Source: an uncultured delta proteobacterium
GTDB lineage: Bacteria > Myxococcota_A > Polyangia > Polyangiales > B10-G4
Length of the DNA stretch: 64,000 bases
NCBI GenBank assembly: GCA_963727445.1
Contig: CAVSGI010000002.1
Coordinates: forward strand, 64,001 to 128,000
Direction of reading: 5' to 3'
Below, in pieces: positions 64-19,144 of the stretch. Made by a program: the position numbers and the translations under genes. Numbering within the stretch: position 1 is the stretch's first letter; each line of letters opens with the position of its first letter. Below the pieces are notes generated by a model, which worked only from the letters and a program-made list of their open reading frames with translations, did not search any database and was not told the DNA's origin.

Positions 64-801
64 TCAACGACGACCGTCGAGACCGGAGTGGCAGATGGCG
101 CACTTGGCGATGAGCTGGGCGTAGACACGCGCCTTGTCAGCGGGCTGACCCGCGTCGTGCGCCTCCTGGCCGAGCGCTCGGAGCTCCTCGAGGTGCGGGG
201 TGAGGGCCTCGGCATCCTCCTCCTCGCGGAGGGCCTCCGCCTGCTCCGGCGTCATGGGGTCCTCCATGATCGCTTCGGCACCGCGCTCCCACGCCTCGTG
301 CGAGGGGGCGGTGAGGCCGAGCCAGAGCTGATCGACGCCCCAGGCGTGGCGGTCCATCTCACCGCGGACGTTGTGCTCGTGAGGCGGCTGCTGCTCCGGA
401 GGAATGGCCGGGCCGCCCAGCGTGGTGCGGTGGCAGTCCGCGCAGCTCTCGGTGAGCGCGGCGACGGCGTTGGCAGCCGCCTGGATGTCCGCGACCTCGG
501 CGTAGCTCCCGGCCGAGTTCTGCATCTCGCCGACCCACTGCCGCCAGTCCCACGGCATGTCGTCACCATATTCGGTGGCGGCGATGCGCGCGAGCGGTGC
601 TCGGACGCCCTCGAGGTCACCGTTGATCACGGCGTCACGGGCCGCGGCGACGTCGGCGAAATGCTCCCGCATGTGCTCCGGCGCGGTTTCGGTGTCCGCC
701 GCTTGCTCGTCTTCAGCCGGCGGCGGCTCACTCGACTCGGTCTCCGTCGGAGTCTGCGTCCCGCCGCAACCGAGGAAAACGAGCAGGGCTGTCCATGTCA
801 T
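64..801 (-). CDS. Diheme cytochrome c lipoprotein (tandem cytochrome c'/class II-like helical domains)
   Basis: C-terminal part of ORF 64..2079. Begins MTWTALLVFLG-C (lipobox-like); alternative GTG start at 810. Two helical halves, each ending in CxxCH (CADCH, CAICH). Confidence 0.75.
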   Translation of the reverse strand: MTWTALLVFLGCGGTQTPTETESSEPPPAEDEQAADTETAPEHMREHFADVAAARDAVINGDLEGVRAPLARIAATEYGDDMPWDWRQWVGEMQNSAGSYAEVADIQAAANAVAALTESCADCHRTTLGGPAIPPEQQPPHEHNVRGEMDRHAWGVDQLWLGLTAPSHEAWERGAEAIMEDPMTPEQAEALREEEDAEALTPHLEELRALGQEAHDAGQPADKARVYAQLIAKCAICHSGLDGRR

Positions 802-863
802 GAATCGCACGGCACCTAGGTACACGCTGCACCGACAGACGCAACCCCGAAAATCCGTGGCCT

Positions 864-2819
864 TCAGCGGGCGAAGGGGTGGCAGCTCTGGCAGGTGCTC
901 GCGTCGGGGAAATGGCCCGTCGCCTTGTCCCGATGGCAGCTCACGCAAACGGAGCGTCGGGGTGGAGCGACCGAGTGACCGCGGTGACAGTCGGGGCAGC
1001 GCTGGTGCTGGGGCACCTGATGCTGAAGCGTCTCGGTGATGTGTTGATGACAGCTGGTGCAGGCGGGCGGGCTCTGGCCCACCGGCTGATGGCAGTTCTC
1101 GCAGGACGCGTGCGCGCCGGGCGCACCGGCGCCCGCGCGCGCTTGCTCCGCATGACACGACGCACAGGTGCCCCACCAGCCGCCCGCGGGGAAGGCGTGG
1201 TGAACCTGATGACACCCGGTGCAATCCCGATGGCGGCCGGTGTGCTCTCGCGACGTCTCTGCCTGATGACATCCGCGGCACGCGGGAACGTGACCCACGT
1301 CGTGCGCCGCGTGGCATCCGGAGCACGGTCCCGCGTGGATGCTGCCGGAAGGCCACGTCGCGTTGGCGTGCGCCACCTCGCCGTGGCAGCTGGCGCAGGC
1401 CGGCGTCTCGTCGAAATGGTGCGGCGTGTGGCAGGACGCGCAGACGCGGTGGGGCGGGGGGCTCTGACGGCTGGTCACCGTCCGCGCTTCCGTGCCGTGG
1501 CACCCGGCGCAGGCGGTGGTGCTCCGGCGCGTCGGATCGCCATGAGGATCGTGGCATGTCTCGCAGTCCTGATGCGGCGCCGGCTGATCCTCGAGCTCGG
1601 TATGGACGCCGGCGTGGCAGCCGTTGCACGCCGTTCGCGGGTTGGGGGCGCCGGCGTGCGCGTCGTGGCAGGCCAGGCACGAGCGATGCGCGTTGGGCGC
1701 GCCAGCGTGATGGATGTTCGAGTGGCACTCGACGCAGACCTCGGGGCCCGGAGGCAGCGAGTGTGGCTCGTGACACTGAAGGCACGCGTCGTGTCCGTTC
1801 ACCCGGGCGATGCCTGCCTCCTGATCCGTGTGGCAGGCGGCACATCCATTGGGATCGGCCCGGAAGACGTGCGGCGTGTGGCAGGTGCCGCAGCGTCCGT
1901 CGTGGGTGAGGCTCTGCGCGTCCACCGCGAGGCCAGCGTCGGAAGGTGACGTGGTGGCCGACGCCCAGAGGCTCTCGCCGCTGCGCCGCCGCTCTCCCGG
2001 CCTGGGCGGACGGTGACACCGGAGACAGCTCACCGCCGGCGCGTCGCGCGGGGGGTGGGCGGTATGACAGGAGGGGCACCCGCGATGTCCCTCGGTGCCG
2101 GCGGCGATGTCAGCGGACAGCACCCCACGGTGGCAATGAACGCAATCCGCCTGCCCCACTGCGCTCTCATGGGGGTTGTGGCAGGTGCGGCAGTCGCCCG
2201 AGTCGTGAACGCTGTCGGCCGGGAGCTCGGCGGTCCAGGGCGCGATCTCGAGGAGCGCACCCGACGGGTGCACCGGCTGCTCGGGGTGCTCCTCGGCGCG
2301 GAACCCGTGGCAGGTCACGCAGTCACCATCGCCGAGCTCGACGTGGGTGGTGAGGTCGCGGTGGCAATTCTGGCAGGCTGGGGTGATGGGGCCGCCGTGA
2401 ATCGCGTTGGCGTGGCAGGAGGTACAGGGGACGTTCGCGTCGACGTGCGCTCGGTGGCCGCGGGTCTGCATCTGCCGGCGCCATCCACGCGCGTCGCCCT
2501 CGTGACACTGGCGACAGGTGTCCGGGTCGACGTCACCGTGTTCCGGCGGGCTCTCGTCGCCGCGCAGCGCCGCAAATGCGAGGGAAAAGCGCTGATTTTT
2601 CGGAACGGGATGACAGCTCTGGCAGGCGAGCTCCTCGTGGTCTCCGAGATGGGCGCCGCCGTCGGCGTGACACCCGGTGCACGCGGCGCGATCGGAGGCC
2701 ATGCGCTCCTCGGCGCCGGGCGCCCAGCCGAAGGCGAGGATCGCCGCCGCGCCCAGGGCGACGATCGCCGTGCCCACGACGACGCGCCGCCGCGTCGACC
2801 AGTTGCCCTTCGCGCTCAT
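864..2819 (-). CDS. 29-heme multiheme cytochrome c with N-terminal membrane anchor/signal
   Basis: 651 aa with 29 CxxCH motifs counted by eye, many as H..CxxCHxxH..CxxCH pairs. N-terminal basic plus hydrophobic segment. ATGA overlap with the upstream gene at 2816-2819. Confidence 0.93.
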   Translation of the reverse strand: MSAKGNWSTRRRVVVGTAIVALGAAAILAFGWAPGAEERMASDRAACTGCHADGGAHLGDHEELACQSCHPVPKNQRFSLAFAALRGDESPPEHGDVDPDTCRQCHEGDARGWRRQMQTRGHRAHVDANVPCTSCHANAIHGGPITPACQNCHRDLTTHVELGDGDCVTCHGFRAEEHPEQPVHPSGALLEIAPWTAELPADSVHDSGDCRTCHNPHESAVGQADCVHCHRGVLSADIAAGTEGHRGCPSCHTAHPPRDAPAVSCLRCHRPPRPGERRRSGESLWASATTSPSDAGLAVDAQSLTHDGRCGTCHTPHVFRADPNGCAACHTDQEAGIARVNGHDACLQCHEPHSLPPGPEVCVECHSNIHHAGAPNAHRSCLACHDAHAGAPNPRTACNGCHAGVHTELEDQPAPHQDCETCHDPHGDPTRRSTTACAGCHGTEARTVTSRQSPPPHRVCASCHTPHHFDETPACASCHGEVAHANATWPSGSIHAGPCSGCHAAHDVGHVPACRGCHQAETSREHTGRHRDCTGCHQVHHAFPAGGWWGTCASCHAEQARAGAGAPGAHASCENCHQPVGQSPPACTSCHQHITETLQHQVPQHQRCPDCHRGHSVAPPRRSVCVSCHRDKATGHFPDASTCQSCHPFAR

Positions 2820-4119
2820 CGCTTCCTCCGTCGGGTCCGGAGGGTGAAGGCAACGCCGATCGCCAGCGCCACGATCGACAGCACGAGGTAGCGCGGTGGG
2901 ATCCCCTCCGCCGCGGGCGGTGCCTCGGCCGCCGGCGGTGCCTCGGGCGCCTGAGCCGCGAGGGCCGAGAGCGCGTCGGCCTTCTGCTTCACCTCGTCCA
3001 CGTCGAGGCGATGCACCGCGTCGCCGAGGGCGGCGCTGAGCGCGGAGGCCCGCTGGCGGAGAGCATCGTCGCCGCGGGCGATGCGCTCGCGCGCAGCATC
3101 GGCCTGCTCGAGGGCCTCACCGAGCGCGCCGATGCGCCCGTACACGTCGTCCGCCGGGCCGTGGCAGCGACGGCAGGCGGCCTCGCGCCCCGCGGTCACC
3201 AGGCTCGCATCGGCGCGGAGGATCTGGTGATTGCCGTGACACTCGACGCAATCGAGAAAACCGCGCGCGGCGAAGGCTTCGCGATGGGGTCCGGCATCGA
3301 AGGCCGCCGCCACTTCCTCGTGACAGCGCCCGCACGCGATCACCGCTTCTTCGGCCGAGACCCCACCATGCGGATCGTGACAGTCGGCACACGCCGGGCC
3401 GCCCCCCTCCCCGTCCGTGCGCTCGGCCCAGGCGGAGGCGTGCACGCTCCGGGACCAGTGCCCGAGCGGATCGGACGCGCTGCCGCTGCCATGACATCGC
3501 CCGCAGGTCGTCGGCACCCGCGTCCAGTGCACCGAAGAATCCGGATCGTCCGCCGCCGCCGGCCCATGCGGGTGGTGGCAGTCCCCGCAGATCGCCCCCG
3601 CGCCGCCCGACAGATACGACGCCGCGTGCGCCGACTCGGGAAAGTCGGCGAGCGTCTCCGGAGCGGCTCCCGTTCCCGCGTCCGTGCCCGTTCCCGTTCC
3701 CGCGTCCGTCGTCCCGTTCCCGTTCCCGCGTCCGTTCCCGTTCCCGTTCCCGCGTCCGTTCCCGTTCCCGTTCCCGTTCCCGTTCCCGTTCCCGCATCCG
3801 CCCCCAGTGCCGCCACCAACCCCTCCCACCTCTGAGCCACCCCCTCGTTCACGTGACAGGCGAGGCACGGCGCGACGGGGCGGGCGTGGAAGGGCGCGGC
3901 GTGGGCCGCGACGGTCGAGACGGGGGTGCCCGCGTGACAGCCGGTGCAATCCACGCCCTGTCCCCGATGGGGATCGGCGTCGAGGTCGAGCGCAGGAGCG
4001 CGCAGCGCCACTTTGCGGCGAACGCGGTGACAGTCGATGCAGGCGTCCTCAGCCTGCGCGACCGGCACGACGAGGAGGAGGCCCACGAGAGCCAGACACG
4101 CTTTGCTCGCGACGCTCAC
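2816..4119 (-). CDS. Nonaheme cytochrome c, signal peptide plus C-terminal TM anchor (apparent frameshift near 3711)
   Basis: GTG 4119 (GTGA overlap). Signal VSVASKACLALVGLLLVVPVAQA and 3 CxxCH lie in frame 3340..4956. After a G-T linker, 6 CxxCH, a helical region and TM+RRRKR lie in frame 2816..3949. Confidence 0.85.
3668..3800. repeat. Hexanucleotide (CCCGTT)n / CCCGCGTCCGTT low-complexity repeat encoding a (GT)n-DAG linker
   Basis: Tandem CCCGTT units are directly visible; the minus-strand translation is GTGTGTGTDAGTGTG. Confidence 0.9.
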
Positions 4120-5174
4120 GGGACGTGACACACCCGGCAAACCGCGTGGCGTTGGGGATCCATCGTCGCGCCGAAGCCCGGGGGATGCGGGTTCGAGGCG
4201 ACGCCGCCGACGCGGTGACAGGGGACGCAGGTCTGCGCGGCGTCCGCTTCGTGACAAGAGGCGCAGGCCATGATGTTGCGCCGCGCTTCGGCCGCGTGCC
4301 CGCGGGGGGAGAGCGGGTCGAGCCAGCCGGGCGGATGAGGGCTCGCCCCGGAGACGCTGCCGCCGATGCCGGCGGCGCTGTGACAGTCGTCGCAGAACGG
4401 CACACCGTGGCAGCGGAGACAGGTGCCCTGCTCCATGCGCGCCTCGAGCGCGTGGCGGGCGCGGAAGTCGCCGCGGTGGACGAAGTGGCGCGTGACGTTG
4501 GTCGGCTCGACGAGCTCGAGGGCGATGGGCGCCACCGAGGTCATGTGGCAATCCTCGCAGAAGGAGGGCTCGTGACACGAGGTGCAGAGCGCCTGTTCGG
4601 CGCGCGCCGCCGCCGCGTGGCCGCGAAGAAAGTCCGGCGGGTGTTGGTAGATCGCGATCTCCGCGATCGAGTACTCGTGGAGATCCACGTGACAGGGAAC
4701 GCAGCGGAGCTCGCGCAGCTCGGCCGAGTGACAGGAGTCGGTGCAGTCGGCCATCTCGGGCAGGTGCACGTCGAAGTCGGCGAGGCTCTGCTCGTCTCCC
4801 CGGCGGCCGTGACACGCCACGCACTCTCCGCGCATCGGCTCCGCGTGCTCCGCGTGATCGAAGCGCACCCGCCGATGGCGCCGCGGATAGGTCGCGGGCT
4901 CGCGTGGAACGGTGTGGCAGAACCTGCAGCGATCTTCGCCGCGCTCGCGATGACAATCCCGGCAGAGCTCCTCTGGCGGCACCAACGCGGCCAGCGGCCC
5001 GGCGTCCTCGGTGGCGCCGGGATGACAGGTCACGCAGGAGAGGTCGTCGCCGAGATGCGCGGCATGCGAAAAAATGATCCGGTCGCGCTCCGGCCGACTG
5101 TTGCGCGTGCAGCCGCTCGACAGAGCGAACAGCCCCAGGAGCACGAACGCCGCGCCGCTTCGAAGCGAGCTCAT
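4116..5174 (-). CDS. 13-heme cytochrome c lipoprotein (c3/c7-like, ExtA-type porin partner)
   Basis: MSSLRSGAAFVLLGLFALSSG-C lipobox; 12 CxxCH plus 1 CxxxCH (CTDSCH); FSHAAH/FDHAEH motifs; ATGA overlap at 5171-5174. Confidence 0.9.
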   Translation of the reverse strand: MSSLRSGAAFVLLGLFALSSGCTRNSRPERDRIIFSHAAHLGDDLSCVTCHPGATEDAGPLAALVPPEELCRDCHRERGEDRCRFCHTVPREPATYPRRHRRVRFDHAEHAEPMRGECVACHGRRGDEQSLADFDVHLPEMADCTDSCHSAELRELRCVPCHVDLHEYSIAEIAIYQHPPDFLRGHAAAARAEQALCTSCHEPSFCEDCHMTSVAPIALELVEPTNVTRHFVHRGDFRARHALEARMEQGTCLRCHGVPFCDDCHSAAGIGGSVSGASPHPPGWLDPLSPRGHAAEARRNIMACASCHEADAAQTCVPCHRVGGVASNPHPPGFGATMDPQRHAVCRVCHVP

Positions 5175-6548
5175 CGGACGTCCTTTGGCCGATAGGAGAA
5201 GCTGAGCTGACCGCGGAGCTCCGAGGCCACGATGGGCGATCGCGCCCAGTCGATGGACGCCCCCACGTTGAATCCGCCCTCGACCGGCCAATCGGCGCTG
5301 AAGCGAGTGAGTATCGACTCGCGTTCCACCGCGTCGTCGAGCCCCACCGCGGCCTGGAAGGCCACGATCACCCGCTCCCAGAGCGGCGGCAACGCCACCG
5401 ATCCCTGCAAGACGTTGAGCCCGACCACACTGTCGTCGCGGCGGGACAGACTGATGAAAGCGCGCAAGCCTGTGAGCACGTCGGCGTATCGCGCCACCGT
5501 TTCGAGGCGGTAGCCGACGTAGGCGCCGTTCATCGAATAGACGCGGAGCCCGGCGAGGCCGCGGAGCGACCAGTGGTCGGAGACGCGCAGGGTGGCCCCG
5601 CCGGCGACCTCGTCGAAGATGCTCGAGGCGAAGGCCGCGAGGATCGACCACGTCGGCAGAAGGCGCGTCGGATCGACGTGCTGCCATCCAGAGATCCGTC
5701 GTGAGCGACTGGCTGACCAGGAAGGTGGCGAGGAGGCTCGCCTGCTCGATCCCCAGCGAGCCCAGATCGAAGGCGACGTTGCCGCTGAGGTCGACCTCCG
5801 GGACGATGCGCCAGAGCGCGTCGGCCGCGAGGGTGCGGTCGGCGCTGATCCCCTCGGCGAAGCGATCGAGGTAGGACAGAGACGCGTTGAGGTGACCGGG
5901 GCTCGAGTAGCCCAGGCGGGCGCCGTAAGCGAACGTGGGCATCGAGTAATCGGGATGCTGGCCGAGGAGCCCACTGCGGCGCGGGGTGACGGGCCGGCCG
6001 ACGGCGGCCTCCGCGACCCATCCATCCGCGAGGCGCACCGCGGCGCCGCCGCCATCGAGGTGCACACCGCCCGGGATGCCCCAGGCGAGAAAGCGTCGCC
6101 CCGCCCACGCGCTCCCGACCCCGTAGCGACCCTCGACGTAGCCGATGGCGAAGTCCCCCGCCACGATCCCATCGTCCGAGGGGAAGGTGAGATCGAGCGA
6201 CCCCCAACCGGAGAAGTGCACGTCCACCGCGCCGTTCGCCAGATCGCGGGCGTCGAGGCTGACGCGCTCGTAGAGAGGCAGCTGGGCAATCCGTTGCCAA
6301 TAGCGCGTATTCGCATCGACCGAAAATGATTCGTCGACGGTGAAGACGTAGGCCGACTGGAAGCGCATCACGGTGTCCGAGCGAACGCGGATCCGCGCGG
6401 GGATCGCGTCGCTCTCCGCTGGCGGCGGCTGCTCCGGTCGCGTCGGTCCGTCCTCGCTCTCCCGGTCGGCCGTGTCCTGCGCACGCGAGAGCGTGGGGAC
6501 GAGCGCCGAAAGGACGGCGAAGCACGCGAGCAAGAGGCGCCCCCTCAC
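5171..6548 (-). CDS. Outer-membrane beta-barrel (porin of porin-cytochrome conduit); 1-nt insertion near 5690
   Basis: GTG 6548 with signal peptide (..LVPTLSRA-QD). Alternating beta-strand patterns (AYGARLGY, LNASLSY, FNVGASIDW, GQLSFSY). N-part in frame 4116..6665, C-part in frame 5171..6316; ~458 aa when joined. Flanked by multiheme genes. Confidence 0.8.
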
Positions 6549-8062
6549 GTGCCGTCTCCCGCGTCGATCACGCCGTCGACGTGCATCGCCCGGCCCGAGG
6601 CGCTGATGCGCGGCCCCGCGGGTGTTTCGCTGATCTCGCCCCCGTGGCAGAGCACCGAGGCGCACAGCCCGGGCACCGGATGGGTGTCCGCTGGAGGCAG
6701 ACCGTGGCAGGCATCACAGCGATCTGCGACCGCCTCGGGCTGCGCCCATCGCGGAGAGGGCACAGCACCTCCTTCGATACCCGCGCCATGGCAGGCGACG
6801 AAGCAGCTGGTGTCTACGGCTTCGAAGGTCGGCTCGGTGCCGCGCGCCATGGCGAGGCCGGAGAGCTCCACCTCCACCACGCCATTCAGATGTCCCGGCG
6901 CGTCGAGGCTCGACGGTACGCGGTGACACGAGCCGCAGGCGACCGGCAGCGCGATGGTGGGGTCTCGGTGCCCATCGTGGGCATCCCCGCGCGGCCACGC
7001 GTCGTCACCGCCTGCACCATGGCAGGCGCCGCAGCCGCCGCTTCCGTCGCCGACGTCGACCACGCCGTTGGCGTGAAGAGGCCCGGGCAAGAGCGCCGTG
7101 CCGTCGGCGTTCGCCTCGGCGTGACAGCAATCGCAGGTGCCCGGATAGTGGTCCGGAGGCGGGCTCGCATGACAGCTCTGGCAGTCGAGCGCCTCGGTGT
7201 CGGACCAGGCCGGCATGGGCCGGGTGCCGCCCTGGCCGTGGCAGTAGACGGCGCAGGTGCCGGTCTCCGGGTCGTAGCGCGCGTCCTCGCCGCCTGCGAG
7301 CGCGCTGAACGCGATCTCCACCACGCCGTCGCCGTGCAGCCCTCCCTGGCCGACGGTCGTGTCCCGCTCACCGTGACAGTCGGCACAATCGATCCCGGCC
7401 TCCGCGTGGGGCGCGTGGGCGCCAGCTACGCCCGCGGCGTCGCCGAAGAAGCAGGGATCGCGCGGTGGATAGGCCGCGTCGCCGTGACCGTGGCAGGTCG
7501 CACAGTCGAGGACGCCTTCCGGCGAGTCGTGGCAGCGTGTGCAGGGTGGTGCACCCGGCGCGACGCCGACGCCTTCGGGCCGAAAAGGAGCTCCGTCGTG
7601 ACATCGCCCGCACGCCCCCGGGCTCTCGGCGTCGTACATCGGATCCCAAGAGGCCGCGCGGAGCGCCGCACCGTGAAATGCGTCGGAGCGCGGGTCGGTG
7701 AAGCCCGGCGGGTGGGCAGCGCCGTAGCGATCGATGGCGCCCGCCTCGACCCACCTGCGCACATAGTCCGCGCTCAGGTCGCCGAGGAGGTCCGCGTGAT
7801 CGGGCTGGGAGAGCACGGCGATGATCGGAGCCGTCGCGTCCGCCGGTCGAACCGCGACGCGCCCGTCGGGCACGCAGTAGATGGTGTCGAGGTAGGTCTC
7901 GACCGAGTACCCGGCCGCCGGAGCGTCGCCGCCGTGACATTCGGCGCACGCTTCACGAAGCAGCTCACCCGCACTCGCCGCATAGGTCGGCGGCGGGTCC
8001 ATCGGGTCTTTCGTCTCGCAGCCGCCGACGACGATGATGGCGGCGAAGACGAGGGGCCTCAC
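6545..8062 (-). CDS. 13-heme cytochrome c lipoprotein with Geobacter-type CxxxxCH...CxxCH repeats
   Basis: GTG 8062, lipobox IIVVGG-C; 10 CxxCH, 2 CxxxCH (CAVYCH, CFVACH) and 1 CxxxxCH (CASVLCH); repeated HxNG/HxDG-VVxV and P.W motifs typical of this repeat. Confidence 0.88.
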   Translation of the reverse strand: MRPLVFAAIIVVGGCETKDPMDPPPTYAASAGELLREACAECHGGDAPAAGYSVETYLDTIYCVPDGRVAVRPADATAPIIAVLSQPDHADLLGDLSADYVRRWVEAGAIDRYGAAHPPGFTDPRSDAFHGAALRAASWDPMYDAESPGACGRCHDGAPFRPEGVGVAPGAPPCTRCHDSPEGVLDCATCHGHGDAAYPPRDPCFFGDAAGVAGAHAPHAEAGIDCADCHGERDTTVGQGGLHGDGVVEIAFSALAGGEDARYDPETGTCAVYCHGQGGTRPMPAWSDTEALDCQSCHASPPPDHYPGTCDCCHAEANADGTALLPGPLHANGVVDVGDGSGGCGACHGAGGDDAWPRGDAHDGHRDPTIALPVACGSCHRVPSSLDAPGHLNGVVEVELSGLAMARGTEPTFEAVDTSCFVACHGAGIEGGAVPSPRWAQPEAVADRCDACHGLPPADTHPVPGLCASVLCHGGEISETPAGPRISASGRAMHVDGVIDAGDGT

Positions 8063-8655
8063 GGCGCGACCTCCTCCGCCGTGGGCGGATCGGCCACGCC
8101 GGTGCCCTCGCGCGGCAGGTAACCGTCGAGGCGACTCTCGCAACGCCGCGCGGAGAAGCGACCGGCGACGCAGCTGTCCCGACCGTCGTCGAAGCACGCC
8201 CGGATCCGCCCCTGCGCACCCGAGGCTTCGACCTCGTCGAGGGCGAGCCGCAGGACGCCTTCACCCACGCCCACCCACCGGCCCTCCACGGGCTGCTCGT
8301 AATGGATCGAGACCGGCGACGCGTCGCCGTGGTCGACGGTGGTCTCCCCCGACGCAAGCGCCTCTGCGCCACTGAAGCGCACGAAGACCCGCCGCCCCTG
8401 ACGCACCACGGGCAATCCGCAGTCGTCGACGGTCTCTTCGGCGAAGAAGAGGTCGACGCGCGGGGCGCCGTTCATCCGAAAGATCCGGTAATAGACGTCC
8501 TTCGCTTCGAAGGGCGCGCCTGCGATGTTCCCTTCCACTCCGTCGCCGAGATCATCGAGGGAGAGGTCGGCGAGATTCTGGTCAGACCGTCCACTGCCAG
8601 CCGTGGGCTGCTCGCACGCCGAGAGGAGGAGCGCCGCGATCACGAAGCGCCTCAC
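8059..8655 (-). CDS. Hypothetical heme-free lipoprotein within cytochrome operon
   Basis: GTG 8655 (GTGA overlap), VRRFVIAALLLSA-C lipobox, beta-rich, 4 additional Cys, no CxxCH. Confidence 0.75.
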   Translation of the reverse strand: MRRFVIAALLLSACEQPTAGSGRSDQNLADLSLDDLGDGVEGNIAGAPFEAKDVYYRIFRMNGAPRVDLFFAEETVDDCGLPVVRQGRRVFVRFSGAEALASGETTVDHGDASPVSIHYEQPVEGRWVGVGEGVLRLALDEVEASGAQGRIRACFDDGRDSCVAGRFSARRCESRLDGYLPREGTGVADPPTAEEVAP

Positions 8656-9893
8656 GACGACGCCTCCCTCACCTGGCGAGAGACGAGTTGGCCCTCGGCC
8701 AGAGGAACGCCGACCTTGATCAGCACGGTGTAGAACGCGAGGCCCGTAGCCCAGACACCGGCGCAGACGGCGATCTCCGTGAGCGAGGGTGTGTACTCGT
8801 AGATCTGGCCGAGCGGCCCCGGGATGAAACCCGGGATCACCATTCCCATCCCTTTTTCGATCCACACGCCGACCACCGCCATCGCACAAGCGATGAGCAA
8901 GAGGGGCATCCGCCGACCGAGACCGGGAACGATGAAGATGGTGCACGCAGTGAGGTTGAGCGCGAGCGCCGTCCACACGTAAGGCACCAACTTGTGATGC
9001 CCTTCGAGCCCGAAGAAGAGGTAGCGCATCGACAGGCCGTGGATCGACGTGGAGAAGAGCTCGGTGAAGACCTCGGCGGCGAGGAGGAAGAGGTCCACCA
9101 CCATCGCGAGGGCGAGGATGCGCCTCAGCGTCTCGATCGCCTCCTGCCTGACCTCGACGCCGGCGTAGCGACGGATCGCCCACAGAGACAAGACGAAGAA
9201 GCTCGGCCCGGCGACGAAGGCCGACGAGAGGAAACGCGGCGCGTGCGCCGCGGAGTGCCAGAAGGGTCGCGCGCTCAGCCAGACGTAGAGGAAGGCGGTG
9301 ACGATGTGGAGCGCCACCGCCCAGACCGTTGCGCTGAGGAGCACGTTGCGCCAGCGAAGGCGGTCGATCTCCTTTCCACGGAAGCGCACCCAGAAGAACG
9401 TCGCGATCAGGGTCAGGTTGATCACGCCCCAACCGGAGAGCGCGACCACGTCCCAGGCCAGCATGGAGTGGGGGATGGACAGCCACCCACCGAGGAAAGA
9501 CGGCAACATGTGCCAGGCGCGCTCGGGATGGCCGATGTCCACCATCACGAAGAGCAGCGCCATGACCACCGCGGTGAGGGCGAGGTACATGCCCAGATAG
9601 ATCAATCGTGTGAGCTCCACGCGATCGAAGAGCAGCGCCGGGACGACGAGGATCACCGCCGCGTCGATGAGCCCGACGATGTAGGTGAAGTTCGCGATGT
9701 ACGCGCCCCAGGGCACGTGATCGCTCATGTTGGTGACGCCGAAGCCCTCGGTGATCTGATGGGAGTATGCCCAGCCGCCGATGGCCATCACCACGAAGAG
9801 CGCCGACAGCCACGCGTAGTAGAGCGGCGGCCCTTTGACCGCGCACTTCGCGAGAGCGGCGATCAGCTCGCCGGCTGTCTTCAGGCTCTTCAT
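8652..9893 (-). CDS. nrfD: NrfD/PsrC-family integral membrane quinol-interacting subunit
   Basis: ATG 9893; ~10 TM helices; motifs VPWGAYIANFTYIVG, DIGHPERAWH, RPFWHS, VWIEK, YTPSLTEI. Family-level call. Confidence 0.9.
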   Translation of the reverse strand: MKSLKTAGELIAALAKCAVKGPPLYYAWLSALFVVMAIGGWAYSHQITEGFGVTNMSDHVPWGAYIANFTYIVGLIDAAVILVVPALLFDRVELTRLIYLGMYLALTAVVMALLFVMVDIGHPERAWHMLPSFLGGWLSIPHSMLAWDVVALSGWGVINLTLIATFFWVRFRGKEIDRLRWRNVLLSATVWAVALHIVTAFLYVWLSARPFWHSAAHAPRFLSSAFVAGPSFFVLSLWAIRRYAGVEVRQEAIETLRRILALAMVVDLFLLAAEVFTELFSTSIHGLSMRYLFFGLEGHHKLVPYVWTALALNLTACTIFIVPGLGRRMPLLLIACAMAVVGVWIEKGMGMVIPGFIPGPLGQIYEYTPSLTEIAVCAGVWATGLAFYTVLIKVGVPLAEGQLVSRQVREASS

Positions 9894-10873
9894 TCTTCGA
9901 AGTAGTAGAAGAAGCGGGGCAGCGTCCCCTGCTCCTCTTTGAAGACGTAGATGCGCTTCTCTTCGAGGATCGAGCGGATCTCCGACTCGGGATCGAGGAG
10001 GTTGCCGAACTTGCGCGCACCCACCGGGCACGCTTCGAGGCACGCGGGGTTCAGCCCCTCACGCACGCGGTGAAGGCAGAAGTGGCACTTCTCCACCACG
10101 CCGGCCATGCGAAGTCGATTCGAGAGGTAGCCCTGATTCGGATTGATGTCGGCGGGTGGGACGTTCGGCTCGCGGAAGTTGAAATGCCTGGCGTCGTAGG
10201 GGCAGGCGGTCTCGCAGTACCGACAGCCGATGCACCAGTCGTAGTCGACGACCACGATCCCGTCCCGCTCGCGCCAGGTGGCGTTCACCGGGCAGGCCTT
10301 GACGCAGGGAGGGTTCTCGCACTGATGACACTGCACCGGCATGTAGAACCGGCCCGGCCGCGGCACCTCGCCCCGATAGTCGTGCACCGCGTTTTCGACG
10401 TCGAAGGTGCGGTCGAGCTCCATGACCCGGATGTAGTGGATCTCCTGATCGCGCGAGGTGTTGTTCTCCTGCGCACAGGCGTACTCGCATTGCCGGCAGC
10501 CGGTGCAGACCGACACGTTCAGCGCGTATCCGAACTCGACACCCTCGAGCGGCTGCGGGTCCGAGATCTTGGCATCGACGCCGTATCGCTCCTTCACCCC
10601 CCTTTCGAGACGCGCGAAGAGCGCCTCTTTGTCCTCGTCGCTGAGGCGTTTGTAGTGCTGCTGGAAGAACTCCTCCCACACGCCGCCGCCACAGCCTGTC
10701 GCCGTCGCCGCCGCGGTCGCGCTGGCGGTGGTGCCCACCCGGGAGAGGAAGGATCGGCGCGTCAACTGAACGCGCTCGAGCGCCTCGGCGAGGCCGGGAT
10801 CTTCCGGCTCCGCCGGCTCTTCGGGCGCGCTCTGGCCCCATACCTTCAGGCGCCGCTTCATCGCGTCGAGCAT
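9890..10873 (-). CDS. NrfC/DmsB-like 4x[4Fe-4S] protein with twin-arginine signal
   Basis: LTRRSFL Tat motif; CTGCRQCEYAC, CHQCENPPCVKACP, CIGCRYCETACP, KCHFC..PACLEACP; GGAGG upstream of ATG 10873. Confidence 0.93.
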   Translation of the reverse strand: MLDAMKRRLKVWGQSAPEEPAEPEDPGLAEALERVQLTRRSFLSRVGTTASATAAATATGCGGGVWEEFFQQHYKRLSDEDKEALFARLERGVKERYGVDAKISDPQPLEGVEFGYALNVSVCTGCRQCEYACAQENNTSRDQEIHYIRVMELDRTFDVENAVHDYRGEVPRPGRFYMPVQCHQCENPPCVKACPVNATWRERDGIVVVDYDWCIGCRYCETACPYDARHFNFREPNVPPADINPNQGYLSNRLRMAGVVEKCHFCLHRVREGLNPACLEACPVGARKFGNLLDPESEIRSILEEKRIYVFKEEQGTLPRFFYYFEE

Positions 10874-10874
10874 C

Positions 10875-11426
10875 TCAGGGTTCCTCCAGTGCATCCCGAG
10901 GCACCGGAAGCGCCGTCAGATGGATCCCCTGCACGGGGGCGTGGGGGTCGTGACACGCAGTACACGTGCGCCGGTCGGCGACGCGCTGCCACGAGCCGGT
11001 CTGGATCCCGTGCATGCCACGCGACCAGTCTTCGTGCTTCACGCCGTGACACTGGCCGCAGAGCCGCGCCGATTCGTCGAAGCTCACCGCGGTCCCGTCG
11101 ATGAGACGAAACTGATCCAGGTCGTCGAGGTCGTGGCAGCGGTCGCAGAAGTGCATCACCGCGGCGTGCTCGATGTGGATGTCGGTGTGAAACTCTCGGA
11201 GCCTTCGCGGCGTGGGGTCGGGCGTGCGGTCCCGGTGGCACTGCTCCATGCACGGATAGGTGGGGATCTGATCGGTGCGTGAGACCACCACCACGTCGTG
11301 CTCCTGAGGCGTCAACACCTGTGGGCGATCCTCGGGGAACAGAGGGTTGTTCAGATGCTCGCAACCCACCGCGCCGAGGGTCAGCAGCGACAGGAACAAC
11401 ACCGCGTGTGGAGGAGCGTGGGCCAC
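10875..11426 (-). CDS. Tetraheme cytochrome c lipoprotein (CbcS-like partner of NrfC/NrfD)
   Basis: Lipobox LGAVG-C; CMEQCH, CDRCH, CGQCH, CTACH. Confidence 0.88.
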   Translation of the reverse strand: MAHAPPHAVLFLSLLTLGAVGCEHLNNPLFPEDRPQVLTPQEHDVVVVSRTDQIPTYPCMEQCHRDRTPDPTPRRLREFHTDIHIEHAAVMHFCDRCHDLDDLDQFRLIDGTAVSFDESARLCGQCHGVKHEDWSRGMHGIQTGSWQRVADRRTCTACHDPHAPVQGIHLTALPVPRDALEEP

Positions 11427-11431
11427 GGTCT

Positions 11432-13483
11432 TCAGATCGGCGGATTGGGCAGGACGAGGCGATGACAGATGCCGCAGCTCTGGGTCACGGTGGCGGGCTG
11501 CTCGCTGGCGTACTCGAAGCCGCTGGTGCGATAGCGATGCGTGGCGAGATCGCCCTGGTAGTACTGGACGGGGGCGGCGGTGGCCGGGTCGGCGTCCAAG
11601 AGGCCCTCGACGTGTGAGCCACCGGTCGCCGTCCGCGTCATGTGGCAGAGCGTGCAGAGGAGCATGTCGTCCTCGAGGCCGGCGTGGTCGTCGCCGGTCC
11701 TCATGGCGATGTGCATGCGGATCTCGTCCGCGTAGCGGCGGTCGGAGTGACAGCTGGTGCAGCCCGCGTCGTCGCGAATGCCGAAGTAGAGATCGTGAGG
11801 CTCGGCGTCGCGGCCGTGCGGGTCGTGACAGTCGTCGCAGGTGACGATCACGCTCTCGTTTCGATACTTCGCGCTCCGGATGTGGTCCGTGTACTGCTGC
11901 CGGTGGACCCGCGCATCACCCGAGGGGAAGATGTTCGCAGGGTCGACCTCGCTCCCCGCGAAGTGGCTCTCGAGGAGCTCGCTCCGCCGGATCCCCGCCC
12001 GGGGCATGTGACCGTCGGCGTCGAGAGGCAGGGGGGTGTTCGCGGGCGCCGAGTGGCAGCCGCCGCAGATGGCGAGCGCCCGGCCGGGGGTCAAGAGCTG
12101 CGGAGAGACGATCGCCGTCCCGCGCACGTCCGCCTCGAGGTGCTCGGAGCCAGGCCCGTGGCAGCTCTCGCACCCCACGTTGATCTGCTCGCGCCGCCCG
12201 TCCCCGTCGTAGTCGTACGCCCCCTCCGGGCTGGCCACCGCAGAAGCAAACGCGCCCGCCCCACCCCCATCGTGGGCGGAGTAGCCCGTGAAGTGGCAGC
12301 CAGCGCAGTTGGCGTCGAAGGAAGCGTCTGGCGCAGGTGTGCGAAGCGTCCCCGCCGCGTGATCGTAGAAGACGCTCGAGCCCGTATCACGCCAGGTCCA
12401 GTCCGCCGGGTCAGGCCGACCGTCGTCCCCCTGGTTCTGGAACTGGAACGGCAGCGGGAAACGCATGGGCCTCCCGCTAGGCCCCGACATCCGCGCGAGC
12501 AACTGACTTCGCTGAAGCACGCCGCCGTAGACTAGGTCGACGTCGTAGCTGGCCGTTTCGGCCGCGCGCTGGTTACGAAAGACCACCCGATATCGCCCCT
12601 GCCCGCCTGGCGGCACTGAGGGGTCGAGGCGCAGATCGGCGATGAAGCTCACGACCGCGGGCGCGGCGGGCGCCGTCTCGCTCACCTTGCAGAGCCCAGC
12701 TCCCGGCGACGCGCCGTCGCAGTCGTAGAAGTAGAGCGAGGTGTCGAAGCGCGCGAGGATGGCATCGAAGTCGGGGTAGCGGGACGTGTCCTGGTGGGCG
12801 CCGCGCTGGCCGGGGACGGTGAGCCCGACCGAGTGGGCGGTATCGAAGGAGCGGTGGCGCCCATGACAGAAGAGGCACGCCGTCGAGCCGATGAAGCGTG
12901 CCTCCGCGCTCGGCACGCAGCTCACCTCGAGGTCGAGTCGTGTTCCGAGAAGGGACGCCGGATCCTGGGCGGTGCGCGCGTAGGTGCCGCCCGGCAAGCG
13001 CGCGGCATCGGTCGCGGCCGGGACGAAGACCACGAAGACGGATTGCTCGGGCAGGGTGGTGAAGCGATAGACGCCATCGGCGTCGGTCACGGCCTCCGCG
13101 TACCCGCGCTCCGCGTCGAGAAGGTCTTCGATGGGCTCGTCGATGGTCGAGAGCGCCGCTTCGGCGGGCGCCAACGAGACGTCGATCGGCGTCTCCGCGA
13201 GAGCCATCACGTCGGCGGCGAGCACCAGCACGACCCGACCCCCGGCCACGACGCGGTCCGCCGTGTCCGTGACGCGGCCCACGAGACCATTTGCTTCGAG
13301 GGGGATGTCCGAAGCGTCGGCGCTGACGCTGTCGATGGCGGCGTCCATGGCGACGCCGGTGTCGGGCGTCGGCCCGGGCGGGCCTGCCTCGCCGGGGTCG
13401 CCCTTGGGGCCCACCGGACCCTCACAGGCGACCACGAAGAGCAGCAGGACGACGGCCGCGAGAGTGCGGCGCGCCGCGCTCAC
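11432..13483 (-). CDS. Octaheme cytochrome c lipoprotein (c554-like core) with collagen-like N-terminus
   Basis: Lipobox FVVA-C followed by GPVGPKGDPGEAGPPGP; 8 CxxCH including FIGSTACLFCH and NVGCESCHGPGSEH. Confidence 0.88.
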   Translation of the reverse strand: MSAARRTLAAVVLLLFVVACEGPVGPKGDPGEAGPPGPTPDTGVAMDAAIDSVSADASDIPLEANGLVGRVTDTADRVVAGGRVVLVLAADVMALAETPIDVSLAPAEAALSTIDEPIEDLLDAERGYAEAVTDADGVYRFTTLPEQSVFVVFVPAATDAARLPGGTYARTAQDPASLLGTRLDLEVSCVPSAEARFIGSTACLFCHGRHRSFDTAHSVGLTVPGQRGAHQDTSRYPDFDAILARFDTSLYFYDCDGASPGAGLCKVSETAPAAPAVVSFIADLRLDPSVPPGGQGRYRVVFRNQRAAETASYDVDLVYGGVLQRSQLLARMSGPSGRPMRFPLPFQFQNQGDDGRPDPADWTWRDTGSSVFYDHAAGTLRTPAPDASFDANCAGCHFTGYSAHDGGGAGAFASAVASPEGAYDYDGDGRREQINVGCESCHGPGSEHLEADVRGTAIVSPQLLTPGRALAICGGCHSAPANTPLPLDADGHMPRAGIRRSELLESHFAGSEVDPANIFPSGDARVHRQQYTDHIRSAKYRNESVIVTCDDCHDPHGRDAEPHDLYFGIRDDAGCTSCHSDRRYADEIRMHIAMRTGDDHAGLEDDMLLCTLCHMTRTATGGSHVEGLLDADPATAAPVQYYQGDLATHRYRTSGFEYASEQPATVTQSCGICHRLVLPNPPI

Positions 13484-15696
13484 CGGAACTGATACTCCGG
13501 TCGGGCGTGCACCGCGTCGACGGCGAACTCGTCCTCGTCACCGTGGCAGGTGCCGCAGGCTTCGCCCCCGCTCGGGGTGGTGTTGGTCGCGAAGTGCGCC
13601 GCTGCCTCCGCGGAGCTGTGGCAGCCGCCGCAGGCCGCAGCCGCCGAGCCGATGGTCATCGTCGTCACCGTCCCCGCGGAGTCGACCTCGGCGATGGCGA
13701 CAGGCGCATTCGAGCCGGCCAGGGGCAGGGTCCAGGTGCCGTCGAGGTGGCACTGCGAGCACACCCGGAGATCCGCCGGATAGGCGAGGTCCGGGCTCGA
13801 GTGGACGCGATGGATCAGCGCCGCGAGATCGAGAGAGGGTGCGATCTCCGTCCCCGAGGTGGGCGGCGTGATGGGCTCGACGAAGGTCGGGTTGTGGCAG
13901 AACGCGCAGTAGTCCGGATTCTTGCGGTTGCCGCCGTGGAACTCGAGGGGCAGGTGGCAGGTGTTGCAGTTCGCGGTGCTCACGATCGCCCGCCGCGGAA
14001 CGGCGGTGGGGTCCGTGATCGCGACGACCGCGACGGGGTTGTCGCTCGGGAAGCGCGTCCCCATCGAATCCACGTCGCGGGACTCCACGCTGACCGACCA
14101 GGTGCCCTCCGCCGGAACCGAGTTCGCGGTGGCGATGGCGTCCACCGTGTCCGGAACGAGGTAGCGGAACTGACCCATCGAGGCGTCGATGGCGGTGAGG
14201 GTGCCTTCCGAGGGGGCGTTGTAGTCCTCTTGGAAGCGGTAGTCGGTGGTGGGCCCGGCCACGCGGAAGCGCAGGCGGTCGAGCGGCGTCGTGAGGACGT
14301 CGTAGGGCGTGCCGCCGACCGTGATCGTGAAGTCCACCTGGATCCGTCGCCCGCTGGTCAGGGTGACGGCGTCGAAGGTGACCTCGGGATAAGCGCTCGC
14401 CGGGTTGGTGAAGGGGTAGTAGTGGCGATCGATGATCGGCGAGACCCCCACGCCCGTGGGGATGTGACAGTCGGTGCAGCGGTCGTCGTCGGGACGGTCG
14501 CCGCCCGGGTGAAGCCGCTGCCAGGCCGCCGGCGGGTCGCCCATTTCGAACCAGATGTCGTCGTGACAGGAGCCGCAGGCCGCGCGGCTCGGGACCGTGT
14601 TCCAGCGGTCGCCGTCCGGTCCGGCGTGGCAGGTGGTGCAGTTGCGGATGTCCTGGGGAAACTCGACGTCCGAGTAGTCGTGCACGCTGCCGCGATAGCC
14701 GACGATCTCATAGGGGTTGCCAGCGACGACGCTCGGCAGATGCGCGCCCCGGTGGATCTTGTGAACCATCGTCTCGAAGTTGATGGTGTTGCCAGTGTCG
14801 GGATCGGCGTATCCCGCCGCGTGACAGGTCGCGCAGAGACGCACGTTCTCGCGCGAGCCGCCGTGCGCCTCGAGCGGCGTGTGACAGTTGTTGCACGCGT
14901 CGTTGGTGACGATGTCGCGGGTCTCGGTCACCGGCATGCCGTCGGGCCGGAAGTTGGGCGCGTCGTTCGCGACGTAGCGGACGCCGTCGTAGGTGCGCGT
15001 GGCGTAGTAGCCGATGGTGTGCGTGCGCGTCGCGTCGTAGTCCGTGGGCAGGACCACGCCGAAGTCGTAGCGGTAGATGCCGTCCGCGTCGTCGACCACG
15101 GTCCACGTGCCGCCGGAGTCGGTCGCGGGTTGGGTGGCGGAGCTCATCCCGTCCTCGCTCATCACCGTGCGTGTGACGTAGTTGACGTAGGGCAGGACGA
15201 CCGGGCCATCGAGCCGCATCTCGGTGGGCAGATAGGCGACCGTGAAGCTCACCGCTACTTCGCCTTCGGTCTGGATCCCCTCTCGGTCGAGGGGCGTTCC
15301 CTCCGCGTCGGTGAATCGGAGCACGGCGTAGGGGATGCGCGTGGTCGCGTCGATCCCGTACTCCATGGTCTCGACTTCGAGCCCCGGACCGGTGACGTAG
15401 GCGTTGGTGCCGTTCGACCCGTCGACGCCATCGACGCCGTTGGTGCCGTCGGTGACCGTGACCATGGTGCCGTCGTCACAGGCGATGGTCTTGGTCCCCA
15501 TCCCATCATCGGTGACGGTGCAGCTGGTCCCATCCATGCCGTCGCGCACGATGGCTTCGGTGCCGTCGCTGCACGAGATGGTGGCGGAGCCGTCCGGGTT
15601 GTTGACCACGGTGCACTCGGTGCCCCCACAGCCGGCGGTGGTGCCGACAGCCATGGCTGCAGCGAAAAGCATCGTGATTCGTGTCGGTGCTCGCAT
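13480..15696 (-). CDS. mtrC: OmcA/MtrC-family decaheme outer-surface cytochrome c lipoprotein
   Basis: ATG 15696 after GAGAGG; lipobox TTAG-C. Architecture is beta domain, 5 CxxCH, beta domain, 5 CxxCH. Family motifs CNxCH..HGGxR..CxxCH, MVHKIH, FPQDIRNCTTCH. Family-level call. Confidence 0.9.
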   Translation of the reverse strand: MRAPTRITMLFAAAMAVGTTAGCGGTECTVVNNPDGSATISCSDGTEAIVRDGMDGTSCTVTDDGMGTKTIACDDGTMVTVTDGTNGVDGVDGSNGTNAYVTGPGLEVETMEYGIDATTRIPYAVLRFTDAEGTPLDREGIQTEGEVAVSFTVAYLPTEMRLDGPVVLPYVNYVTRTVMSEDGMSSATQPATDSGGTWTVVDDADGIYRYDFGVVLPTDYDATRTHTIGYYATRTYDGVRYVANDAPNFRPDGMPVTETRDIVTNDACNNCHTPLEAHGGSRENVRLCATCHAAGYADPDTGNTINFETMVHKIHRGAHLPSVVAGNPYEIVGYRGSVHDYSDVEFPQDIRNCTTCHAGPDGDRWNTVPSRAACGSCHDDIWFEMGDPPAAWQRLHPGGDRPDDDRCTDCHIPTGVGVSPIIDRHYYPFTNPASAYPEVTFDAVTLTSGRRIQVDFTITVGGTPYDVLTTPLDRLRFRVAGPTTDYRFQEDYNAPSEGTLTAIDASMGQFRYLVPDTVDAIATANSVPAEGTWSVSVESRDVDSMGTRFPSDNPVAVVAITDPTAVPRRAIVSTANCNTCHLPLEFHGGNRKNPDYCAFCHNPTFVEPITPPTSGTEIAPSLDLAALIHRVHSSPDLAYPADLRVCSQCHLDGTWTLPLAGSNAPVAIAEVDSAGTVTTMTIGSAAAACGGCHSSAEAAAHFATNTTPSGGEACGTCHGDEDEFAVDAVHARPEYQFR

Positions 15697-15789: not shown

Positions 15790-17196
15790 TCAATACCCCA
15801 TGTCGCTCATGGCCTCGTCGTTCGCCTCGAGCGAAAGAGAGCGGGCGGCAGGAGCGCTCATCGGCTGGCGCGCGGCGCCGGAATGCCCGCGCAATTGTTG
15901 CACTCGCTGCTGCATGCGCTGCCGTTCCGCCCGTGGCGCCCGCTCCATCGCGCCTTCCACGACGTCGGCGGCGAAGTCGAATTGGCGCGCTGCCTCTTCG
16001 GCCCGTCCCTGGTCCAGGGCCACCGCCGCGGCGAGCTGGGCCTCGGCGGCGCGCTGATTGGCGACGAGGGAGGCCACGCGCGGCGCCTCGCTGCCGGCCG
16101 CCGTTCGCGCGTCCGCCACGATCTGATAGTCGAGGTGCGCGGTCTGGACCTGGCGGCCCCGCCCTGGCGCATCGAAGGTCAGGCGCGCGGTGCCGGCGCT
16201 GTGCCGCCCGAGACGCTCGGTGTCGATCTCGGCCCGGAGCAGCACCTCGCGGCGCTGGCCCGCGTGGAGCGCCCCCACGTTGACCCGCACCCGACCGTTT
16301 TCGACGCTGGCGCCGCTCGACTCGACCCCGAGGATGCGCACGCCGGCAGCGGGGACGACCTCGATGATGGTGTTGGTGGCCACGGTGTGGCTCAGGAGCT
16401 CCAGCTCCTGTTCGAGGATGGTCGCCATCTGCGCCGGATGCTCGAGGTGGTACATGCGGCCGGCGCTCCGGACCGCGAGGGCGGCCAGGGTGCGTTCGTC
16501 GTAGTCGAGCCCGACGCCGATCGCCGACACCTGCGCGCCGCTCTCCGTGCCCGCTGCCGCGATGGCGCCGAGGCTCTGGGGATCCGCGGGACCGATGTTC
16601 GCGCGGCCGTCGGAGACGATCACGAGGCGGCGGATCGGATGCGTCGCGGGCGCGGCGGCCAGCCTGTCTTCACCCACGCGCAGACCGTCGAACATGTTGG
16701 TGCCGCCCATGGCGCCCAGCGTCTGCACCTGTTGGATCAGCATGCCGCGGTTCTGCTCGCTCACGGTCGTGGGGGGGCTGATCTCGGACACGCCGTTGTT
16801 GAACGCGTAGATGGAGACGATGTCGCCGGAGCGCAGGCTCTCCACCAGGCTCGCCGCCGCCATCCGGGCGTTCGCGATCTTCTGGCCCTCCATCGAGCCC
16901 GAGGTGTCGATCACGAGCGAGAGGTCCATCGGGGCCCGCCGGGATTCGGTGACGACCTCCGGGGCGTCCACCCAGACGCCGATGTAGGTCTGACCGTCCG
17001 CCCCGATCACGATACGGGTGTTCGCCGGAGCCCCGCCGATCCACGTCCCGTCGGCGCCCACGACCTGCGCGGTCGATCCGTCCTCCACCACCACCCGCAT
17101 CTGCCCCTGATTCGGCTGTGCCTGCGCCGCACCACCCCCACAGCCGGCGATCGCCGCCGCAAAAAGAGCCGAAACCCCAACGAATCGTGCGCGCAT
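15790..17196 (-). CDS. VWA (MIDAS) domain lipoprotein, YfbK-like
   Basis: Lipobox [36 protein letters not shown]. Confidence 0.88.
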
Positions 17197-17311
17197 GGCC
17201 TTCTCCCTCTCGGTCATGGAGGGGCTAGACGGCTCAGATGCAGAAGGGATCTGCGCGACGTGTCTCGATTCGGTCGCGGCGAGTGGGTCCGGGCGCTATG
17301 CTCCGGGCGCC

Positions 17312-17968: not shown

Positions 17969-17995
17969 CCTCCCAGCGCGGGCGGCCTTTTCACC

Positions 17996-19075: not shown

Positions 19076-19105
19076 GCCTGCCCGAACCCGGAGGCGCATT
19101 TCTGC

Positions 19106-19141
19106 TTGACATGTAAACGAATTGGTCGAACCATTCGACCA
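19106..19141 (+). promoter_or_regulatory. sigma70-type promoter with overlapping FadR/GntR-type operator
   Basis: TTGACA at 19106. AATTGGTCGAACCATT (TGGT-N3-ACCA) and overlapping inverted repeat TGGTCGAA-CCA-TTCGACCA (19123-19141) lie just upstream of the GntR gene. Confidence 0.7.
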
Positions 19142-19144
19142 GTC

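Follow-up and report, generated by a model that had tools for sequence, protein, structure and literature searches.

What does a myxobacterium do with 88 heme motifs packed into one run of genes? The run in question consists of twelve genes, here g1 to g12, on the minus strand from 15696 to 64 of the window, a 64,000-nucleotide stretch (contig positions 64001-128000) from an uncultured member of the Polyangiales. The cluster is real and conserved, and we predict, with confidence somewhat above even, that its proteins form a modular electron conduit across the cell envelope, which most likely operates outward when oxygen is short. The best reading is that it works like the porin-cytochrome conduits of Geobacter (Pcc/Ext) and Shewanella (Mtr), a likeness of working principle that stops short of demonstrated membership in Pcc/Ext. 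The strongest argument for this reading is that two unrelated quinone modules alternate at one end of the system and two unrelated mineral-reductase folds are found at the opposite end.

In the proposed route, g5 (NrfD), g4 (iron-sulfur protein) and g3 (tetraheme) would oxidise menaquinol at the inner membrane, and the membrane-anchored 9-heme g10 and 29-heme g11 would carry the electrons across the periplasm. The outer membrane would be crossed by way of g9, a 13-heme protein of c7 repeats lying in or against the 22-strand g8 barrel. Beyond it, three putative surface lipoproteins, g1 of OmcA/MtrC type, g2 of OcwA type and g7 of CxxxxCH type, would receive the electrons and reduce other cells, humics or Fe(III)/Mn(IV) minerals. 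A span from the quinone pool to the cell surface had been proposed by an earlier annotation of this DNA (the sequence-only reading), and its parts are indeed present, namely the OmcA/MtrC-type g1, the barrel fold of g8 and the 4Fe-4S and NrfD proteins g4 and g5, whereas their locations in the envelope are predicted.

Gene content and layout

The twelve genes are the following.

g1, 13480..15696, minus strand: OmcA/MtrC-family decaheme lipoprotein, 738 amino acids (aa), 10 CxxCH (TIGR03507, PF22113)
g2, 11432..13483, minus strand: 8-heme lipoprotein, 683 aa, with a collagen-like linker, a beta-sandwich and an OcwA/OmhA-like heme domain
g3, 10875..11426, minus strand: tetraheme lipoprotein (3 CxxCH and 1 CX3CH), cytochrome partner of the NrfC/NrfD pair
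g4, 9890..10873, minus strand: 4Fe-4S protein, NrfC/DsrO-like, with the twin-arginine motif RRSFL (Fer4_11)
g5, 8652..9893, minus strand: NrfD-family integral membrane quinone-interacting subunit with hydrophobic segments (PF03916)
g6, 8059..8655, minus strand: heme-free lipoprotein of no known family
g7, 6545..8062, minus strand: 13-motif CxxxxCH/CxxCH-type cytochrome lipoprotein (TIGR01904)
g8, 5171..6548, minus strand: outer-membrane beta-barrel with about 22 strands and no library family, its frame shifted near 5690
g9, 4116..5174, minus strand: 13-heme (12+1) lipoprotein, 352 aa, with cytochrome c7-type repeats (PF14522)
g10, 2816..4119, minus strand: 9-heme cytochrome with signal peptide, C-terminal membrane anchor and hydrophobic ends
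g11, 864..2819, minus strand: 29-heme cytochrome (29 CxxCH), hydrophobic anchor at the N-terminus, candidate wire across the periplasm
g12, 64..801, minus strand: diheme lipoprotein, weakly cytochrome c'-like (PF01322 below cut-off)

From g1 to g12 the heme motifs number 10, 8, 3+1, 0, 0, 0, 10+2+1, 0, 12+1, 3+6, 29 and 2; 83 of the 88 are CxxCH and five are atypical CX3-4CH. Eight junctions are 4-nucleotide overlaps (GTGA at 13480, 8652, 8059, 6545 and 4116; ATGA at 9890, 5171 and 2816). The other three are gaps: two short ones, of 5 and 1 nucleotides, and the eleventh junction (864/801), of 62 nucleotides. Our recount reproduced the co-orientation, heme counts, overlaps and short gaps of the sequence-only reading, which had missed two frameshifts, in g8 and g10. 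Of its twelve-gene unit, g1 to g11 are predicted to be co-transcribed. The membership of g12 is doubtful because no homolog of it occurs in any fetched locus; set off by the 62-nucleotide gap, it is probably a neighbour and not a core member. The genome (9.47 Mb in 27 contigs, 69% GC, 86% complete) contains 36 stop-to-stop frames with at least three CxxCH, and since eight of them sit in this cluster, the grouping of heme genes is beyond chance.

A promoter and terminator scan of the cluster gave a result at chance level, and no motif common to relatives was found upstream of g1. A CRP-like palindrome there (7/10 matches) was rejected, as random 104-nucleotide stretches score so 11% of the time. 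The genes upstream of g1 (window 15790-19894), which we take to encode a VWA-type lipoprotein, ClpP, a histidine phosphatase and a GntR-type regulator, look unrelated to the cluster by sequence reading.

The barrel and its likely 13-heme partner

Homology screens miss the g8 barrel because no library model exists for it: 79 family members gave no convincing Pfam or NCBIfam match, and PF11854 (MtrB/PioB) matched 0/79 homologs. An AlphaFold model of the intact g8 homolog at locus L035, a close relative of this cluster, has 22 strands (predicted local distance difference test score, pLDDT, 71), and its fold matches were outer-membrane porins and 22-strand receptors with Z up to 17.8; MtrB was not among the fold matches listed. 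The atlas neighbours of the barrel are unnamed. Gemmatimonadota is the commonest phylum in the nearest unnamed atlas clusters of the barrel (P0001) and of g6, and the barrel/g6 family may therefore extend beyond Myxococcota.

In g9, the lipobox cysteine and many histidines are conserved, the latter invariantly, and the best match of its profile in the PDB is 3ov0 (E 1.5e-28), a c7-repeat dodecaheme known as GSU1996 (PMC13591261). In 82 of 85 copies of g9 (79 of 82 genomes) the gene directly upstream, on the same strand, is a barrel gene, and two of the three copies lacking it lie no more than 330 nucleotides from a contig start; about 23 of the 82 upstream barrels had entered the barrel profile, so that part of the count is circular. 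Complex prediction with the L035 proteins scored 0.55 for barrel plus g9 against 0.00 for the best of three controls, with at least 47% of contacts in common between runs and a partner pLDDT of at least 59. The mark used is reached by 116 of 157 solved pairs and 2 of 215 mismatched pairs; passes at or below 0.60 are often wrong, and the support is weak. The likely partner of the g8 barrel is g9.

A second, divergent barrel and 13-heme pair is present in this genome (G000:C27:200872-203775, minus strand), with 29% identity to g9. No other multiheme gene adjoins it, and its barrel is split across two frames.

Distribution and exchange of modules

The distribution was examined in 400 phylum genomes, evenly drawn, plus this genome (401 in total). 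At E 1e-30, g9 matches were found in 82/401, so that the layout is not confined to this genome, its core occurring in about 20% of the sampled phylum genomes. OmcA/MtrC matches were found in 84/401 and MtrB matches in 22/401. The two families with heme meet often, OmcA/MtrC being present in 55 of the 82 g9 genomes (17 expected) and within 20 kb of g9 in 20, whereas MtrB was matched in 0/82 g9 genomes and, weakly, in 1/84 MtrC genomes; the MtrC scoring covered two candidates per genome, and many assemblies are fragmented. Weak barrel-profile matches extended to 127/401 genomes at E 1e-10, counted irrespective of the neighbouring genes. Ten loci chosen for MtrC without g9 had no barrel homolog inside the fetched stretches, and some MtrC genes therefore stand apart from the conduit.

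A detailed set comprised 34 g9 loci (33 genomes and one metagenome contig, partly picked for MtrC; one duplicate stretch was removed from all counts). A g7 homolog was present in 33/34 and a g11 homolog in 23/34. The quinol modules replace one another: NapC/NirT was found at 12 loci, the NrfD module at 6 and both at 0, with an iron-sulfur and tetraheme pair lacking a detected NrfD at 3 and neither module at 13. All seven NapC candidates tested against PF03264, of the 12, passed. The order from g2 to g11 is exact at L035 (77% NrfD identity), with no g1 in front, and in other genomes order and strand are shuffled with the genes still together. A g9 tree of 26 rows groups the five NrfD-type ones on a single branch (100/98) that spans four families, and families f3 and f9 contain both quinol-module types. 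This pattern fits module exchange or transfer, in either direction. L035, the closest named locus, is labelled Myxococcota, and named homologs belong to Polyangiales, Labilithrix and Kofleriaceae; placement of the genome in Myxococcota is well supported by these data, and Polyangiales is probable. At one related cluster (L028:5717-6889), a CxxxCxxC-motif gene, presumably radical-SAM-like, stands between the OmcA and 8-heme genes.

On this evidence we tentatively propose, rating the chance at a little under even, a distinct conduit family in which an unclassified 22-strand barrel and a 13-heme c7-repeat lipoprotein replace MtrAB as the feeder of "orphan" MtrC in about one fifth of Myxococcota. 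It would join MtrC-, OcwA- and Geobacter-type surface cytochromes and plug into either of two unrelated quinol oxidases. This offers a possible answer to how MtrC is fed in the absence of MtrAB, given that 83 of the 84 sampled MtrC genomes have no MtrB match. If the proposal is true, myxobacteria that are nominally aerobes, the cultured Labilithrix luteola among them, would be able to respire extracellularly or to exchange electrons with minerals or other cells. A working conduit would let about one fifth of the genomes sampled in the phylum, among them several families of the order of this genome, exchange electrons with solids, and would add them to Fe, Mn and humic cycling.

Candidate surface cytochromes

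A lipobox pattern was found in g1, g2, g3, g7 and g9. The first of these scores 379 bits against the OmcA/MtrC model TIGR03507 (cut-off 209), matches MtrF (3pmq) at E 2.6e-26 and has its lipobox at Cys23. Past residue 73 its cysteines occur only in heme motifs, with no CX8C pair. No cysteine lies between hemes 5 and 6 in g1 or in 16 of its 17 relatives, which are therefore without the CX8C oxygen switch, a feature of Shewanella MtrC (PMC9973256).

For g2, Pfam gave no explanation, whereas the family profile matched 6i5b (E 7e-20) and 6qvm (E 1.6e-10) in the PDB, Foldseek matched 6i5b (E 4.8e-8), and VIA-align placed it on OcwA with Z 12.4 and a root-mean-square deviation of 4.7 over 309 aligned positions, the next unrelated row having Z 5.5. 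All three methods rank OcwA first and OmhA second. Both are Fe(III)-reducing cell-surface cytochromes of Gram-positive thermophiles (PMC7829351).

The g7 protein scores 89 bits against TIGR01904 (cut-off 27) and has no sequence relative in the PDB. In family f38 (L115, L116, L117, L118 and L153), the g7 homolog has grown to 24-34 CxxCH and lies directly upstream of the barrel.

The g2 results also bear on a different function, in which the cluster would act as an electron capacitor bound to the membrane or as a reductase system for soluble oxidants (N/S oxyanions or chelated metals), with the barrel admitting substrate and no wiring to solids. OcwA resembles octaheme N/S reductases (PMC7829351), and g2 is well conserved, as enzymes often are (38-68% identity across 8 homologs). 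A capacitor role has also been proposed for the large Anaeromyxobacter cytochromes (PMC2330069) and for GSU1996, the closest solved relative of g9 (PMC13591261). A capacitor, however, needs neither an MtrC-family protein nor an outer-membrane barrel whose gene keeps its place beside g9 in 82 of 85 copies, and we regard this function as quite improbable.

The quinone-side module

The trio g3-g5 is followed by g6. A g3 homolog accompanies the NrfD homolog in most of the NrfD-homolog loci compared. The g4 gene, which has an alternative start at 10894, scores 186 bits against DsrO, below the cut-off of 200; g5 passes PF03916 (98 bits, cut-off 25.8) and stays below the DsrP cut-off (322 against 350). 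No DsrM or DsrK was found among the cluster genes. For g6 there was no Pfam or NCBIfam match and the atlas neighbours are unnamed; its homologs occur only in NrfD-type clusters (L035, L028, L031, L034, L130, L147 and L151).

Tetraheme/4Fe-4S/NrfD trios were also seen in Planctomycetota, Verrucomicrobiota, Elusimicrobiota and Gemmatimonadota (loci L036-L114), mostly without other cluster genes. One related cluster has two such trios in tandem (L151:7287-12857). This genome has two more NrfD loci, adjoining molybdopterin-fold and iron-sulfur genes and alternative complex III-like (G000:C20:223354-225953 and C27:235728-240673).

Candidate periplasmic cytochromes and two frameshifts

No sequence relative of g10 was found in the PDB. 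The hydrophobic segment of g11 spans residues 11-36 without a lipobox, and its homologs mostly carry 23-34 hemes. A NapC-like N-terminus for g11 was considered and rejected, since 3/3 tested fell under the PF03264 cut-off. More large multiheme genes (10, 23, 11 and 26 CxxCH) lie elsewhere in the genome (G000:C10:1381338-1388282 and C10:601753-605373); a possible outer-membrane protein gene follows the 10-heme gene, and the 26-heme gene had no NCBIfam match at E 1e-15.

Compared with the intact, 70%-identical porin of L035, a single additional base stands near 5690 in g8. In g10 the frame switches inside a Gly-Thr repeat near 3710, which splits its nine hemes 3+6 over two frames; the homologs at L035, L028, L032, L130 and L134 are each a single 9-heme open reading frame (ORF). 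A tandem repeat at 3660-3800 of the window codes the Gly-Thr/Asp-Ala linker of g10, and the L035 homolog has at the same place a Gly/Ala/Asp-rich linker of different sequence. Probing with 214 coding-like ORFs of related loci showed frame changes in 6 of 45 matched genes, including the porin, with one repeat-like. One set of DNA reads shared 7% of the sequence words, and no RNA set was listed; contigs of the DNA set crossed neither frameshift at high identity, a result with no bearing on the frameshifts, on expression or on habitat.

These frameshifts are probably assembly errors, because both genes are intact in relatives and the assembly is frameshift-rich. Were they genuine, the conduit would be real in relatives and decaying in this strain. 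Both barrel copies of the genome (g8 and that on C27) are split across frames, and the +1 shift ruins the C-terminal third of the barrel. Decay nevertheless appears very unlikely to us: the other ten cluster genes are intact, frame changes were also seen in 5 of the 44 other genes tested, one secretin and one COX1 locus of the same genome are likewise in pieces, and the g10 shift falls within a tandem repeat.

Host respiration and the direction of electron flow

As regards heme maturation, for which the sequence-only reading had suggested a search, CcmF and CcmC are present in the genome, as is MenB. ResB and the futalosine-pathway MqnA/D were not found in this 86%-complete genome, gaps that are covered because Ccm and MenB fill those roles. 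The type II secretion system, also to be looked for, gave no secretin over the GspD cut-off (best 178 against 351, with one locus in pieces).

This missing secretin is one of several observations that weigh against an outward conduit. The host looks aerobic, with three heme-copper oxidase loci, and NarG, NapA and NrfA gave nothing above cut-off among the 20 multiheme or molybdopterin proteins tested. The scores of g4 and g5 are nearest DsrO and DsrP, and other phyla commonly have trios of the g3/g4/g5 type around which no further gene of the cluster was found. Because sequence does not reveal how lipoproteins are sorted, g1, g2 and g7 could lie on the periplasmic side. The co-occurrence of g9 and MtrC is overstated because kin are not independent, and 62 of the 82 g9 genomes have no MtrC match within 20 kb. 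Two of the genes, finally, are frameshifted in this assembly, probably in error.

Some of the same observations would suit an inward conduit, carrying electrons from extracellular Fe(II), reduced humics, sulfide minerals or other cells to the menaquinone pool and on to oxygen respiration. The aerobic chain and the lack of a recognised anaerobic terminal reductase among the 20 proteins agree with it, and so does the NrfD trio of DsrOP/Qrc type, Qrc being a menaquinone reductase by NCBIfam names. Cultured Myxococcota except Anaeromyxobacter are described as aerobes (10.1101/2021.07.06.451402). However, the mtr clusters of Fe(II) oxidisers tend to be without mtrC (PMC4245776). This cluster has MtrC-type and OcwA-type proteins, both known from reducers. 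The NapC/NirT family, which serves the variant clusters, is mostly quinol-oxidising. We therefore consider the inward direction unlikely, and outward flow remains our prediction. The conduit idea is directly testable, because the cultured type strain L. luteola has the 13-heme gene.

Comparison with known systems

A conduit cluster has been defined by a periplasmic multiheme cytochrome, an outer-membrane beta protein and redox lipoproteins (PMC6148476), and all three elements have candidates here. The closest likeness in arrangement is to OmbB-OmaB-OmcB, ExtABCD and ExtEFG of Geobacter, where genes for a beta-protein, a 12-13-heme cytochrome and a redox lipoprotein are adjacent (PMC6148476, PMC4245776); g9 shares its c7 repeats with GSU1996, and g7 has a Geobacter-type CxxxxCH domain. 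The differences are that the g8 barrel has no Pfam or NCBIfam model (OmbB, ExtB and ExtE were compared by description only), that a lipobox cysteine is conserved in g9 whereas descriptions of ExtA place it in the periplasm, and that a quinol module, periplasmic wires and an MtrC-type protein share this one cluster.

In the same phylum, a porin of Anaeromyxobacter (pcc group IV) adjoins the 12-heme cytochrome Adeh_3392 (338-344 aa), which rises under Mn(IV) reduction (PMC4245776). The heme counts are similar (12+1 in g9), and since the sizes are similar too (g9 has 352 aa), homology with g9 is plausible, the two having been compared by description only; unlike the present cluster, the Anaeromyxobacter pair is described as having two genes and no outer-membrane cytochrome (PMC4245776). 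The name Anaeromyxobacter does not occur among the best 120 of 278 g9 homologs, most of them unnamed, and the Anaeromyxobacter rows examined in supplement 1 of PMC11475568 show no 13-heme/26-heme/decaheme run. That supplement lists four consecutive L. luteola genes with 13, 26, 11 and 6 hemes, and marks the 13-heme row as not detected by FeGenie. By equal length, this row (349 aa) would be P0134/AKV00464, which is 39% identical to g9 over 337 aa.

With MtrCAB/OmcA and CymA of Shewanella, the cluster shares a protein passing TIGR03507 and, in variant clusters, a NapC/NirT (CymA-family) quinol oxidase. On the other hand, this genome, at 86% completeness, has no MtrA above cut-off (TIGR03508, best 53.6 against 192) and no match to MtrB/PioB (PF11854), g9 carries 13 c7-type hemes, and g1 and 16 of 17 relatives lack the CX8C switch. 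Judged by its sequences, the cluster is not MtrCAB. The heme-domain fold of g2 is common with Thermincola OcwA and Carboxydothermus OmhA, but g2 has 8 hemes against 9 in OcwA and 11 in OmhA, adds a beta-sandwich, a collagen-like stalk and a lipid anchor, and is encoded in a porin cluster of a Gram-negative host. Geobacter CbcSTU (Cbc4) consists of a tetraheme cytochrome, a 4Fe-4S protein and NrfD, and g3-g5 resemble it and the DsrJOP/Qrc trio. CbcSTU is predicted to be a quinol:cytochrome c oxidoreductase, and its role is unknown (PMC13591261). The trio here differs in that g4 and g5 lie just under the DsrO and DsrP cut-offs, DsrMK is missing from the cluster and the genes are embedded in a porin-cytochrome operon.

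The literature searched gave no description of this gene set, most subscription papers being outside the search and the closed supplements of 10.1101/2022.03.26.485925 possibly listing its proteins. The main text of PMC11475568 does not mention the group, PMC8805035 and PMC12133095 contain no "Myxococc" passages, and the available parts of PMC6295460 and PMC10367259 hold nothing further on this system. Myxococcota have been described as richest in novel putative extracellular electron transfer (EET) cytochromes, with MtrC, ExtABC and CbcL hits (10.1101/2022.03.26.485925). The view of the sequence-only reading that Polyangiales-like myxobacteria are not established EET organisms is qualified by EET genes noted in print for Myxococcota and by the Anaeromyxobacter pair. 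Its picture of a Shewanella and Geobacter hybrid agrees with g1 and g7 and is incomplete, since g2 is OcwA/OmhA-like and the porin has no library family. The system is less singular than the sequence-only reading held, because its porin-cytochrome architecture is known and EET genes of the phylum were flagged before. It is also broader, because the unclassified barrel-cytochrome pair seems to replace MtrAB in about one of every five phylum genomes sampled, and at least the 13-heme gene is present in a cultured strain.

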